Assembly: GCA_030916545.1 (NCBI GenBank)
Contig: JAUPWI010000003.1
Span: 1 to 34,185 of the forward strand
Origin: Patescibacteria group bacterium
Lineage (GTDB): Bacteria > Patescibacteriota > Minisyncoccia > Moranbacterales > UBA1568
Direction of reading: 5' to 3'
Length of the DNA: 34,185 bases
This document shows positions 5,996 to 33,691 of this stretch, one piece after another; within the stretch, counting starts at the first letter, position 1; each line of letters starts with the position of its first letter. The notes under the pieces are model-generated. The model did not search any database. It saw only the letters and a list, made by a program, of their open reading frames with translations, and was not told the DNA's origin. The translations under genes were made by a program, and so were the position numbers.

Positions 5996-6148
5996 CATTT
6001 TTTCAACAAAAAATCGCACCAAAATGGAGCGAAAGAGAATTCGAAACTGGGTATTCGAGGTTGGACATGATGATGGTTTCTCTCAGCGCCCGGATCGCTC
6101 CATGGGGTTTGCAGAGAAGCTTAGGATAAGCCCAGTATATCATTTTTT

Positions 6149-6193
6149 GAAAAAAAAGAAACCCCTGGCAGCGATGTTGCTGACTGCCAGGGG
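6149..6193 (-). terminator. Intrinsic terminator (minus strand)
   Basis: 10-bp GC-rich stem CCCCTGGCAG (6162-6171) / CTGCCAGGGG (6184-6193). On the minus strand it is followed by TTTCTTTTTTTT. Confidence 0.7.
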
Positions 6194-6456
6194 TGGGTAC
6201 TGCGAGAATACTACTAGAGAGTACTACTCTTCCCGAAACGCGCACTGGCGTCTGGGGGGGGGTGCTACGGGCGGGTGTTGCCATACTGCGTTTGGGTGCC
6301 GCCTCAGATATGATGGAGTGTCCCGGCACGGACTTCTCCAAAAAAACCTAATCGCTCTAAAAGGTATTACACTTTCTTGCGCCCGTTCCGTCCTTCGAGA
6401 CGTTCGGGGTGTTACGCCGTTTTGCGCCGCATCGCCAACTGAGTGAGCTTGACGAG
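6149..6456 (-). ncRNA. Candidate ~300-nt structured non-coding RNA of unknown class
   Basis: A GC-rich, hairpin-dense island in a 940-bp gene-free spacer. Minus-strand extended -10 TGGTATAAA (6462-6470) lies upstream and the terminator at 6149-6193 downstream. Local hairpins include GGAGAAGUCC…GGACACUCC and CCGAACGUC…GACGGAACGG. ORFs through the region look like nonsense. Confidence 0.35.
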
Positions 6457-6657
6457 CGGTATTTATACCAGATATTTTTTTAAGAATACCAGGAAGCCAG
6501 GAAACATTACGTCAGAACTTGAAAATAGCCCTGTTACTACCTTCAAAGGACATCCTAGCATATGGATGGATTTTTGTCAAGGGCAACTGGCAGTATTGGC
6601 TTATAGAAGGGATAATTTACTTTTTCAGAAAGCGTGAAGATACGGTATACTGGATAC

Positions 6658-27825: not shown

Positions 27826-29490
<1,665 letters not shown>

Positions 29491-29513
29491 TTCACCCAGG
29501 AAAAAAGACGCGG

Positions 29514-29546
29514 AAAAGGCCCCTCCTGAAGAGAAGGGCCTTTTTT
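29514..29546 (+). terminator. groEL intrinsic terminator
   Basis: AAAA-GGCCCCTC-CTGAA-GAGAAGGGCC-TTTTTT. Confidence 0.75.
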
Positions 29547-29633: not shown

Positions 29634-29939
29634 ATGAATAGTTTTCACGTGGATGAGATTCTTTTCGGGCTGGTTGGCTTTTTCTTTCTGATAAATGCAG
29701 GAGCTTTTTTGGGTATGGCTTTTGATAAGCATCGGAGTCGGACATCCGGAGCGGAACGGATTCCGGAAGGACTGCTGTTCTTTTGGGCGGCCGCGTTCGG
29801 AAGTATCGGGGTGTGGCTTGGTATGCTGGTTTTCCGGCACAAGACTCAGAAATGGTATTTCATCCTGGGTGTCCCGCTTCTGATTCTCGAGAATATCGTT
29901 TTTTTGGTGAGCGTTTCCGAATGGCTGGAGCGGATGTAG
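29634..29939 (+). CDS. DUF1294 family small membrane protein
   Basis: 101 aa with the pattern DKHRS…RIPE…GGxxG…FRHKTQK typical of DUF1294. About 3 TM segments. Confidence 0.7.
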   Translation: MNSFHVDEILFGLVGFFFLINAGAFLGMAFDKHRSRTSGAERIPEGLLFFWAAAFGSIGVWLGMLVFRHKTQKWYFILGVPLLILENIVFLVSVSEWLERM

Positions 29940-29974
29940 TTCCAGGTGAAGAAGGGGAGAGTGCCGGGTATCGG

Positions 29975-30010
29975 AAATAAAAAGGCCCCTGAATCGCGAG
30001 GCGACGGGGC
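29975..30010 (-). terminator. Intrinsic terminator (minus strand)
   Basis: The minus strand reads GCCCCGUCGC-CUC-GCGAU-UCA-GGGGC followed by CUUUUUAUUU. Confidence 0.6.
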
Positions 30011-30187
30011 AAGAGAGGAAAAAGGGAGAGAAACGTGTGTTGTGTTGTGGGAGACGAGTCGGGAAAGGGTTTTTAAAACCGCCTTCCCGACTCGGTCCTG
30101 GTGGGGATCGTCATCGATGTGAGATCCCTCTCGTCTCCGGTCGCCGATGTTTTGGCGCCCTTTTGCCGCTCTCCTTTGGATTTACTA
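29975..30187 (-). ncRNA. Candidate ~210-nt small RNA with a three-way-junction fold (unknown class)
   Basis: Bounded by a consensus promoter (30194-30221) and a terminator (29975-30010). Outer helix 30050-58/30130-38 (GGAGACGAG/CUCGUCUCC) encloses hairpins 30056-30093 and 30104-30128. A further long-range pairing is AAAGGAGAG/CUCUCCCUUU. A CA-rich unpaired tract is CCACAACACAACACAC. Confidence 0.45.
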
Positions 30188-30193
30188 TCTTGA

Positions 30194-30221
30194 ATTATAC
30201 TCTTTTCAGGTATTTTGTCAA
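30194..30221 (-). promoter_or_regulatory. Near-consensus sigma-70 promoter (minus strand)
   Basis: The minus strand reads TTGACA (30221-30216), 16 nt spacer, TATAAT (30199-30194). It lies about 100 nt downstream of the topA stop, so it is not a topA promoter. Confidence 0.55.
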
Positions 30222-30321
30222 GTTCAGTATTGATTGTGGCTTATTGAAAGGATTTATAAAAGAATTCGAACTATTGCCTGAGCTTTGGCCGTATCGAGGG
30301 TATCTGACGTTCAGCGGAGTC

Positions 30322-32481
30322 CTACTTCTTCAATTTGTCCGGACGATGGTTCGCGCAGGCTTTCTGGCTGCAGCGTTCGGGAATGGTTTTGGTGCCTTCC
30401 ATCATGAGCGCTCCGCAGAGCTTGCAGAGCGTGCCGGTCGGTTTGGCTTTGATCGCATTCTTGCAGTCCGGATAGTGGGAGCAGGAGTAGAAGAGGCCAA
30501 AGCGTCCTTTCCGTTCAATCATATCGCCTTTTGCGCAGACCGGACACCGGACGCCGCTTGAGACGATGGATTTCTCGTCGTTCTTGATGAATTTGCATTT
30601 TGGGAAATTGGAACACGCGATGAAGCCTCCATATTTCCCTTGGCGTTCGATGAGCTTCCCGTCTTTGCAGTCGGGGCAGGCCTCGCCGGTTTCCTTGGGT
30701 GGCTCGATGACTTTGCCTTCTTCGGTCAGGGAACCGTCGCAGTCAGGGAAGCGCGAACAGGAGAAGAACTTTCCGTTGCGCGCGAGCTTGATGACCATGT
30801 TCGATCCGCATTTCGGGCATACGGTGCCTTTCGGAGCATCTCCCATATTGGTGACTTTAGCGATCTTATCCTTGCTCTTGATTTCCTTGGTGAAGGGCGT
30901 ATAGAAATCCTTGAGGGTTTTCGCGTATTCGCGTTCGCCGTTCGCGATGTCATCGAGCTTGTTTTCCATGTCGGCGGTGAACTGTTCGGAGACGATCTCG
31001 CTGAAATGGGTGAAGAGGAAACCGTCGACGACGAGACCAGTGTCCGTCACCCGGAGCGCCTTGCCTTCCTTTTCGACATATCCGCGATCCTGGATGGTCT
31101 TGATGATGCTGGCGTAGGTGGACGGTCGGCCGATGCCTCTCTTCTCGAGCTCCTTGACCAGGCCGGCTTCGGTATAGCGCTTGGGTGGTTCCGTCGCCTT
31201 CTCTTCCGCATCGATACTCCTGAGAGTGAGCCGATCTCCGGTTTTGACTTGGGGTACTTCGACGTCGTCGCCGCGGGCCGTGGTGTCGAGAGCGAGCCAT
31301 CCATCGAAGAGCAGATGTGATCCATTGGCGGTGAAGTGAGGAAGGGATCGGTCGACGGTATTGGCGGTGATCTTGGTCCGGAGGATTTCGGCATCGGTCA
31401 TCTGCGAGGCGAGGGTCCGGATGCGAATCAGGGTGTAGAGGCGCTTCTCATCATCGGAAAAACCGGCGGTCTTTTTGCCCGGGTCGGTCGGCCGGATAGC
31501 CTCGTGGGCTTCCTGGGCATTTTTCGATTTGGTCTGGTAGCGGCGGGTGGCCAGGTACTTCTCGCCGAATTCCTTGTTGATGAGAGCGGCGATTTTGGGG
31601 ATGATTTCTTCGGAAATGGAAACGCTATCGGTACGCATATAGGTGATCGCGCCTTTCTCGTAGAGTTTCTGGGCAGCTCTCATCGTGCGGGAAGGAGAGA
31701 GGCCGAGGCGCGAGCTGGCTGCCTGTTGGAGGGTCGAGGTGGTGAACGGCGGATAGGGACGGCGTTTCGCGTTGGTGGCGACGACGTAGGCGATTTCCCA
31801 TGGGTTTTTCTCCGCGAGTCCGATGATACGATCGCATTCTTGCGTGGTCTTCGGTTGTTCGACACAGGTGAAAACGATCGATTCTTTCTTGGTCGTCTGG
31901 CAGTTGGCGGTGATGATGAAGTAGGCCTCGGGAACGAAAGCCTGGATGGCGTTTTCGCGTTCGGCGAGGATATGGAGCGCCGGCGACTGGACCCGGCCGG
32001 CGGAGAGACCATAGCGGACTTTTTTCCAGACGAGTCCTGAAAGATCGTAGCCGACGAGCCGGTCAAGCACCCGGCGGGCCTCCTGCGCTTTTCGGAGATT
32101 CTGGTCGAGGGGTCTCGGATGAGAGATCGCCTCATTGACCGATTTTTCAGTGATCTCATAGAAGAGGACGCGCCGCGGTTTCTTGATTCCGCAGGCGTCG
32201 GCGACGTGCCAGGCGATGGCTTCGCCTTCGCGGTCGGGGTCGGTCGCCAGGAGCACATCGCTGCTTTTTTTGACGAGCGATGTGATTTCGCGCACGATGC
32301 TTTCTTTTCCGGGACTCACGACATAGCGGGGGATGAATCCGGCTTCGATGTCGATCGCATCCTTATTCGATTTGGGCAGGTCACGCACGTGTCCGACCGA
32401 GGCTACGACCTTATACCCGCCTTTCAGGTACTTTTCGATGGTTTTGGCCTTCGAGGGGGATTCGACGATAAGGAGTTTCAT
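30322..32481 (-). CDS. topA: DNA topoisomerase I
   Basis: Starts at MKLLIVESPSKAKTIEKYL (TOPRIM domain). Active-site region ITYMRTDS. Four C-terminal C4 zinc ribbons (CPKCGS…CSRFPDC and similar). The ORF is open a further 30 codons upstream, but that stretch would overlap dprA. Confidence 0.95.
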   Translation of the reverse strand: MKLLIVESPSKAKTIEKYLKGGYKVVASVGHVRDLPKSNKDAIDIEAGFIPRYVVSPGKESIVREITSLVKKSSDVLLATDPDREGEAIAWHVADACGIKKPRRVLFYEITEKSVNEAISHPRPLDQNLRKAQEARRVLDRLVGYDLSGLVWKKVRYGLSAGRVQSPALHILAERENAIQAFVPEAYFIITANCQTTKKESIVFTCVEQPKTTQECDRIIGLAEKNPWEIAYVVATNAKRRPYPPFTTSTLQQAASSRLGLSPSRTMRAAQKLYEKGAITYMRTDSVSISEEIIPKIAALINKEFGEKYLATRRYQTKSKNAQEAHEAIRPTDPGKKTAGFSDDEKRLYTLIRIRTLASQMTDAEILRTKITANTVDRSLPHFTANGSHLLFDGWLALDTTARGDDVEVPQVKTGDRLTLRSIDAEEKATEPPKRYTEAGLVKELEKRGIGRPSTYASIIKTIQDRGYVEKEGKALRVTDTGLVVDGFLFTHFSEIVSEQFTADMENKLDDIANGEREYAKTLKDFYTPFTKEIKSKDKIAKVTNMGDAPKGTVCPKCGSNMVIKLARNGKFFSCSRFPDCDGSLTEEGKVIEPPKETGEACPDCKDGKLIERQGKYGGFIACSNFPKCKFIKNDEKSIVSSGVRCPVCAKGDMIERKGRFGLFYSCSHYPDCKNAIKAKPTGTLCKLCGALMMEGTKTIPERCSQKACANHRPDKLKK

Positions 32482-32527
32482 AAGATAAGACGATTCATCA
32501 GTGAACGTATCGACGCGCCGATCGGTA

Positions 32528-33691
32528 TCAGCGTATTCTCCTATAGTGCATGCCGCCGATATTCTTGGCAAGTCCTTTCATCTCGAGCAGAGTGAGAGCG
32601 GAGGTGATTTCGTTGGCGGAACGCTTTGCCTGTCGGATAATCTGATCGATATGAAGGGATTCATGGGTGAGAATCGACAGGAGAACAGTCTCGTTTTCCG
32701 AAAGCGGAGGGAGCGTTTTGTCGGTCAGTGGATCATCGACGGCGGCCACGGTCGTCGAAAGGGAAAACTCCTCGAGGATGTCCTCGAGGCAGGTGATAAG
32801 TTTTGCACCGTTCTGAATGAGTCGATGGCAGCCGACGGAACCCGGAGAGAAGAGGGACCCGGGGATAGCGAGGACGTCCCGATCGTATTCGAGAGCCAGA
32901 CGGGCGGTGATGAGCGTACCGCTTTGCTCTGTCGCCTCAATGACTAGGGTGGCAGGACTCATACCGGCCATGATGCGATTGCGGGAAGGGAATGTATGGA
33001 GTGCCGCTTGCGTCCCCGGGGCGAGTTCGGAGATGATCGATCCGCCTTGCCTGATGATCCGGTGGGCGAGCGGGAGATGGGACTGTGGTGAGATGGAAGT
33101 GTCATCGACGCCGCTTCCGATGACGGCGAGGGTCGGTCCGTCGCTGTCGAGCGCCGCCTGATGAGCGAGGCCATCGATACCGAAGGCGAGACCGGAAACC
33201 ACCACGAATCCGGCTTGCGAGAGGTGGCGCGAGAAGTCTTGGACGACCTGTCGCCCATATGTCGAGGGACGACGGGTGCCGACGATGGTGATCATCGGGC
33301 GATTCGCATGCCAATCGCCGGAGGTGCCGCGGACATAGAGCAGTATCGGTGCATCGGGTATTTCGCGCAGGAGTGTCGGGAAATCCGTATCGGTATACCC
33401 GATGATGCGGATATCTGGGAACGCAACGCGGAAATCATGCCAGAGAGATGCGGGATCGAGAATGGGGATATGGGTACGGAGGGCGGAGAGAGCGGCCGGG
33501 CGTACGCCGGGCAGCATTCCCTGCGTGTCGAGAACGGTTTGCCAGATAGCCTGTCCTGTTCCGAGGGATCGGAGCAGGGCGAGGAGTGTCTTGTTGCCGA
33601 TACCTGGGATGCGGGAGAGAGCGAGAAGCCAGGCAGCATCGGGAAGCGCCTTTTGATCGGGGACGGTATTCGTGTGTATTTCAGACGCCAT
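32528..33691 (-). CDS. dprA: DNA processing protein DprA (Smf)
   Basis: 387 aa. Contains IVGTRRPSTYG and VVSGLAFGIDGLAHQAAL Rossmann-like DprA motifs and a C-terminal winged-helix-like tail. Shows the conserved dprA-topA linkage. Confidence 0.9.
   Translation of the reverse strand: MASEIHTNTVPDQKALPDAAWLLALSRIPGIGNKTLLALLRSLGTGQAIWQTVLDTQGMLPGVRPAALSALRTHIPILDPASLWHDFRVAFPDIRIIGYTDTDFPTLLREIPDAPILLYVRGTSGDWHANRPMITIVGTRRPSTYGRQVVQDFSRHLSQAGFVVVSGLAFGIDGLAHQAALDSDGPTLAVIGSGVDDTSISPQSHLPLAHRIIRQGGSIISELAPGTQAALHTFPSRNRIMAGMSPATLVIEATEQSGTLITARLALEYDRDVLAIPGSLFSPGSVGCHRLIQNGAKLITCLEDILEEFSLSTTVAAVDDPLTDKTLPPLSENETVLLSILTHESLHIDQIIRQAKRSANEITSALTLLEMKGLAKNIGGMHYRRIR

Follow-up and report, generated by a model that had tools for sequence, protein, structure and literature searches.

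Gene setting and transcription signals

The window (the whole 34,185-nt stretch of DNA analysed) belongs to a Moranbacteria genome, G000, of 0.90 Mb and 96% completeness. Its minus strand carries dprA (32528-33691) and topA (30322-32571), and its plus strand carries groEL (27841-29490) and a gene for a DUF1294 protein (29634-29939). The ends of topA and of the convergent DUF1294 gene leave a spacer of 380 bp, which is filled by a separate RNA unit read from the minus strand. As the initial annotation had proposed, the unit begins with a consensus promoter. The –35 hexamer TTGACA (30216-30221, minus strand) and the –10 hexamer TATAAT (30194-30199, minus strand) stand 16 nt apart, match the consensus at 12 of 12 positions and are invariant across all homologues. 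This is the sole 12/12 match within the 2-kb region scanned, and by our own arithmetic a 12/12 promoter with a 16-18 nt spacer is expected by chance ∼0.01 times per 68 kb. Transcription is predicted to start at 30186-30188 on the minus strand.

The unit closes with an intrinsic terminator (29975-30010, minus strand), a signal that had also been placed correctly from the start. It consists of a two-part GC-rich hairpin (30010-29985), then CUUUUUAUUU, with the U-run at 29984-29975. The terminator sequence itself is kept in six lineages, and in the relative G007 the inner stem has changed from UCGC/GCGA to UCAC/GUGA, which is a compensatory change. From ∼30186 to 29975 on the minus strand, the predicted RNA is ∼212 nt long. 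The longest sense open reading frame in G000 has 13 codons, in agreement with the earlier view that the unit holds no plausible ORF. We also considered whether the RNA could be the leader of a downstream gene. This was ruled out because the next gene, DUF1294, is convergent. The unit therefore combines a promoter and a terminator of its own with the lack of a conserved reading frame and of a leader role, the features of a stand-alone small RNA gene.

Fold of the RNA and selection on it

The minus-strand RNA folds at –84.8 kcal/mol versus –59.8 ± 4.8 kcal/mol for 200 shuffled sequences (z = –5.26, none of the 200 as good), and the plus strand reaches a z of only –2.27. The consensus fold is a four-way junction, in which three hairpins (H1, H2 and H3) lie inside a closing helix. 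The initial annotation had drawn a three-way junction with two enclosed hairpins, and this has to be corrected. Its helix GGAGACGAG/CUCGUCUCC does not hold either, as it overlaps the base of H3 and is not kept by the relatives.

The RNA starts with an 18-nt 5' end, AGUAAAUCCAAAGGAGAG (30169-30186, minus strand), that is identical in all seven full-length sequences. Nucleotides 1-11 have an unpaired probability of 0.7-1.0 in every homologue, and the first 9-12 nt form a predicted unpaired, invariant tail, AGUAAAUCCAAA. The invariant 5' end thus provides a conserved accessible element of the kind expected of a seed. Within the 18-mer lies the first of two GGAGA boxes (30174-30170, minus strand). 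Hairpin H1 (30139-30160, minus strand) is GC-rich with an 8-nt loop; it is found in six of the seven sequences and is absent from G007. The second GGAGA box (30134-30138, minus strand) is located at the junction of H1 and H2 and is present in all homologues, G007 included (UUGGAGAAU). Hairpin H2 (30104-30128, minus strand) has a 6-bp stem, a 3-bp extension with a bulged C (C or G among the relatives) and a 6-nt loop of the form C-N-N-Y-G-A, the 3' half of which, YGAUG, is conserved. Hairpin H3 (30050-30098, minus strand) is an almost perfect long helix (13-18 bp) whose tip varies and whose base, GAG(G)UCGG, is semi-conserved. We asked whether H3 could be a copy of the hairpin-repeat family of the window, but its sequence is different.

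H3 is followed by a linker (30035-30049, minus strand) for which the earlier reading was right in part. The CA-rich tract that it described is present and unpaired in G000, and the linker is unpaired in all homologues, but its sequence is not conserved and is CA-rich in G000 only. Between the linker and the terminator lies a CU-rich tract, CUCUCCCUUUUUCCUCUCUU (30011-30030, minus strand), with CUCC-type boxes that supply the 3' strands of closing helices formed with the GGAGA boxes. Each homologue has 2-3 CUCC-type boxes in its 3' third, and their sequence varies among species. The closing helix pairs the invariant GGAGAG with this variable tract over at most 12 bp. Both GGAGA boxes pair with two CUCC-type boxes, and the choice of pairing differs by species and competes within one sequence. 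For GGAGA box 2 in particular, the CU-rich partner in the 3' part shifts between species, and the second long-range helix formed in this way is uncertain.

We compared the conservation of the RNA with that of neighbouring genes. At four-fold degenerate sites of topA and groEL, the identity of G000 is 0.70-0.74 to G008, 0.41 to G003 and 0.32 to G007 (saturated). For the most distant carriers synonymous sites are thus saturated (32-41% identity), yet the first 18 bases of the RNA are invariant. The 6-8 nt between the –10 hexamer and +1 vary freely, and conservation resumes exactly at the predicted +1, which argues that it is the RNA, and not the DNA, that is constrained. In the RNAalifold consensus, 94% of cells hold standard pairs, versus 41-53% when the partners are slid by 1-3 columns, and 13 base pairs show compensatory changes on both sides, versus 2-5 when slid. 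None of 500 shuffles reaches the observed covariation score. The relatives had been expected to conserve the helices, and H2 and H3 do carry compensatory changes there: both sides have changed in 4 of 9 pairs of H2, where 96.8% of cells are paired, and in 8 of 18 pairs of H3. In P1, 95% of cells are paired, the variation being mostly replacement of G-C by G-U and including no double changes; only the minus strand accommodates the G-U pairs of P1 and H2. Very little variation is seen in H1 and in the terminator stems, and H1 has no compensatory changes. The homologue set amounts to only about four independent lineages, so the covariation statistics are modest, though consistent. Overall, these comparisons point clearly to purifying selection on the RNA as RNA.

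Range of the family and relation to known RNAs

Besides G000, six species-level genomes of a single Moranbacteria genus carry the RNA unit, and two further variants of it, L139 and L109, come from metagenomes. Full-length copies with the same layout are present in G008, G003, G002, G007 and both metagenome variants, which together with G000 makes seven sequences. Identity to the G000 RNA is 78% over the full length for G008, 72% for G003 and 71% for G002; in G007 only the 5' 50 nt are alike, with the same layout. The copies in the remaining two genomes are partial. In G006 the unit is cut by a contig end, and in G005 ∼100 bases, from just after the –10 hexamer to the middle of H3 (L007 1341-1440), are N, leaving the promoter and the 3' third for use.

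Searches reached well beyond the genus. By blastn against 41 related genomes, the unit was found only within the genus of G000 itself. When 185,579 species genomes were scanned with the 5' 17-mer, 74 loci were obtained (∼70 are calculated by chance); four of the 74 are true, and the exact-pattern scans of these genomes (5' 17-mer and terminator) revealed no carriers beyond the known ones. In the metagenome pattern scan 5 of 60 loci are true and yielded the two variants; most of the matches come from an unrelated gene leader of gut bacteria that contains the 15-mer by chance. A covariance model, R1, was built from the seven sequences. Among 107 genomes of the taxonomic family it identified no additional credible member; nor did it find any at 65 Patescibacteria topA loci, or a second copy in the rest of the window with filters off. 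Two weak matches were set aside. One, in G060, appears to lie inside a coding sequence. The other, in G012 from another genus of the family (L150 1460-1625, E ∼0.007), is a different unit of ∼120 nt with no shared synteny; it has TTGACC-N17-TTTAAT followed by an intrinsic terminator, contains AGGAAAUCCACAC and is probably an unrelated small RNA candidate. No match was found by blastn against phage and plasmid collections.

Within the genus, the RNA is absent from three genomes (G001, G004 and G009) and is therefore dispensable. Beside the DUF1294 gene of G001 and G009 there are other genes and no RNA, and the same is true downstream of topA at 20 further Moranbacteria loci. More distant Moranbacteria keep dprA-topA with different downstream genes. 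Since the wider searches gave nothing beyond one genus, the RNA family is, as judged from the genomes searched, either young or evolving quickly, and its range is limited to a subclade within a single Candidatus Moranbacteria genus.

The neighbourhood of the RNA also varies in smaller ways. In G008 (L157 4547-4960), and in the same gap of G007 (L159), an extra segment that G000 lacks is placed between topA and the RNA promoter. The segment of G008 measures 630 bases, and its opposite strand has two adjacent open pieces of 41 and 75 aa, which by eye we take to be a broken YjbQ/UPF0047-like gene. In a distant Moranbacterium (L204 4660-4878), a short ORF after the topA stop repeats the last TopA residues (TIPERCSNKTCTNHNPHK) and looks like a duplicated topA 3' fragment; a pilin-like gene is found there at the place of the RNA and DUF1294.

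We searched the locus against known families. At the gathering score, Rfam 15 recovers the three tRNAs of the window only, with no match on the RNA unit. At E ≤ 10, the region 29900-30330 gives noise only (E 1.3 to 10), for example miRNA-type hairpin models on H3. The statement in the initial annotation that the RNA resembles neither 5S, SRP, 6S nor tmRNA, nor a purine or TPP riboswitch, thus stands even at this permissive threshold. Domain IV of 4.5S RNA has a GNRA tetraloop and conserved symmetric and asymmetric internal loops. By inspection, neither hairpin of the present RNA agrees with this, H3 being uninterrupted with a non-conserved loop and H2 having the loop C-N-N-Y-G-A, and no SRP model (RF00169 or RF01854) matches the region at E ≤ 10. 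Over the 96% complete G000 genome, 74 candidates were scored with the small bacterial SRP RNA model (RF00169) and none had E ≤ 1; the SRP RNA of this genome either lies on unassembled DNA or is too divergent for the model. Elsewhere in the window (6050-6650), another candidate structured RNA has a GGAGAAGUCCG motif reminiscent of RNase P, and in Rfam at E ≤ 1 that segment gives one noise match only.

An anti-Shine-Dalgarno (anti-SD) small RNA with CCUCCU in a loop was also considered. No invariant CCUCCU is present in an open loop: CCUCCU occurs only in G008 and L139, the others having CCUCUC, GCUCCA, CCUCCA or CCCUCA, and these boxes fall in a stretch between helices. The invariant element is instead the SD-like GGAGA, which is complementary to CCUCCU. 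Among 79 loci, no anti-SD small RNA was found near dprA/topA besides this RNA in G008.

Several known RNAs bear partial likeness to the Moranbacteria RNA. The stand-alone small RNAs RybB and OmrA/B of enterobacteria likewise have their own sigma-70 promoter and intrinsic terminator, no ORF, and a most conserved segment that starts at +1 and is unpaired. However, the Moranbacteria RNA is far more structured, with its four-way junction and covarying helices, and is found in a CPR bacterium and in part of one genus only. The raiA motif (RF03072) and similar orphan non-coding RNAs share with it a length of ∼200 nt, covarying multi-stem junctions, a stand-alone position and an uninformative context, but the RNA described here has no covariance-model match and a very narrow range. 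In the literature searched on small or structured RNAs of Moranbacteria, Patescibacteria and CPR bacteria, we found no description of this RNA, nor did the papers searched contain any non-coding RNA of Moranbacteria. It is a new RNA family of a familiar kind and of narrow range, found neither in Rfam 15 nor in the papers searched.

Possible modes of action

In the flagged stretch we recognise a stand-alone gene that encodes a structured non-coding RNA, with a predicted transcript of ∼212 nt. The proposal of an orphan transcription unit encoding a novel structured RNA is supported by the lack of an Rfam match and by the conservation of promoter, terminator and helices in the relatives, and we are highly confident that the gene is real and non-coding. 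The GGAGA boxes and the 5' tail have stayed constant although the CU partners have diverged, and this makes a role of the 5' end beyond internal pairing likely. We suggest that the RNA might act in trans, with the invariant 5' end as its working site, that is, the single-stranded tail and the SD-like GGAGA boxes. The partner bound there would be a protein or a pyrimidine-rich RNA. CUCC-type boxes within the RNA itself also compete for pairing with the GGAGA boxes; they may act as a mask, and the RNA could alternate between closed and open states. This mechanism is possible but tentative. What counts against it is that scaffolds with so much structure and covariation are found more typically in RNAs that are catalytic or bind proteins than in small RNAs that simply base-pair. 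When the window (34 kb) was scanned for sequences complementary to the 5' end, the 16-mer had no site at ≤3 mismatches other than the RNA's own gene, and the one 8-mer complement seen is at chance level. The csrA gene is in none of the loci examined, which is uninformative as to a CsrA link. Taken as a whole, a structured non-coding RNA gene acting in trans via its 5' end is the best explanation, and in our estimate its chances of being right and wrong are about equal.

The SD-like character of the invariant element leads to a different reading, in which the closing helix AAAGGAGAG/CUCUCCCUUU copies the duplex of an SD sequence with the 3' tail of 16S rRNA, and the RNA binds a duplex-recognising protein such as bS21 or, when open, acts as a decoy for the 16S tail or for small RNAs with CCUCCU loops. 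In all homologues both GGAGA boxes are invariant and are accompanied by 2-3 CUCC-type boxes, and at the gene starts of the window inspected by eye no obvious SD is seen upstream. Among the 16S genes of Parcubacteria, an anti-SD motif was found in only 48% (PMC9297842), and in OLE RNA bS21 binds an internal SD/ASD-like duplex (PMC12054373), which offers a precedent. The P6 stem of OLE RNA likewise sets an internal SD-like purine strand against a CUCC-type pyrimidine strand (PMC12054373). The two RNAs show no homology, and they differ in what is kept: the CCUCCU strand of OLE RNA matches the 16S tail exactly, whereas in the Moranbacteria RNA the purine strand is invariant and the pyrimidine strand drifts. 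The CU boxes are not conserved in sequence, with CCUCCU confined to the G008 lineage, and any purine-rich/pyrimidine-rich duplex looks SD/ASD-like. We consider such mimicry unlikely. A slightly less probable version would be an SD decoy in a bacterium almost without SD-led initiation, where AAAGGAGAG and GGAGA box 2 would capture the anti-SD tail of 16S rRNA with bS21, or else small RNAs with CCUCCU loops, and the RNA's own CUCC boxes would serve as a built-in mask. If this were true, the RNA would be half of an undescribed circuit between two small RNAs or between a small RNA and the ribosome.

Other readings have less in their favour than trans action through the 5' end. A convergent antisense or terminator module for DUF1294, in which read-through transcripts pair with the RNA or polymerases collide, is improbable. 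The RNA is convergent with DUF1294 in 7 of 7 carriers, with 3' ends ∼36 nt apart, and read-through from DUF1294 is plausible since the plus-strand terminator hairpin has no following U-run. However, the carriers are closely related and have the complete gene order dprA-topA-RNA-DUF1294-groEL in common, which may mean no more than that the linkage is recent; antisense action needs neither a multi-helix fold nor an invariant, distant 5' end, and G001 and G009 keep DUF1294 without the RNA. We are still more sceptical of a lineage-specific 6S-like RNA that sequesters the RNA polymerase holoenzyme. Size, strong promoter and stand-alone position fit 6S RNA (RF00013 and relatives), the ends pair, interior unpaired stretches occur on both strands, and the G000 genome as a whole has no RF00013 match at E ≤ 1. 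On the other hand, no 6S-clan model matches the region 29900-30330 at E ≤ 10, and the RNA is a branched, covarying four-way junction with a closing helix of ≤12 bp, not a rod with a central bubble; the 12 pairs with both-side changes in H2 and H3 speak against a rod fold, and three genomes of the genus are without the RNA. Least credible of all is a small-protein mRNA or dual-function RNA in which AAAGGAG is a true ribosome-binding site. An AUG does follow the SD-like box by 6-8 nt in G008 and L139, and a GUG by 4 nt in G003 and G002, but at this position G000 lacks any start codon. Lineages do not agree in their start codons, in their reading frames, which are shifted by 2-nt indels, or in their stops; the encoded peptides show no relationship, and the substitutions are compensatory for RNA helices. 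We therefore rejected the coding reading.

For uncultured Moranbacteria, the locus provides a clean promoter-to-terminator RNA gene with selection on its fold. Among the structured RNAs of CPR genomes that are not yet catalogued, it is a further member, young and restricted to its lineage. Its presence in some species of the genus and absence from others offers natural comparisons for function, and its invariant element is SD-like in a lineage whose inspected window gene starts show no SD. At present it is a catalogue entry rather than a mechanistic advance. With regard to translation starts, no recognisable SD is present within 20 nt upstream of the gene starts inspected, such as those at 27841 (plus), 33691 (minus), 29634 (plus), 17787 (plus) and 5690 (minus). 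The dprA start is located 13 nt after TACAAT and looks nearly leaderless. In the terminator hairpin of groEL (29500-29545), CCUCCU runs from the stem into the loop (GGCCCCTCCTGAAGAGAAGGGCCTTTTTT).
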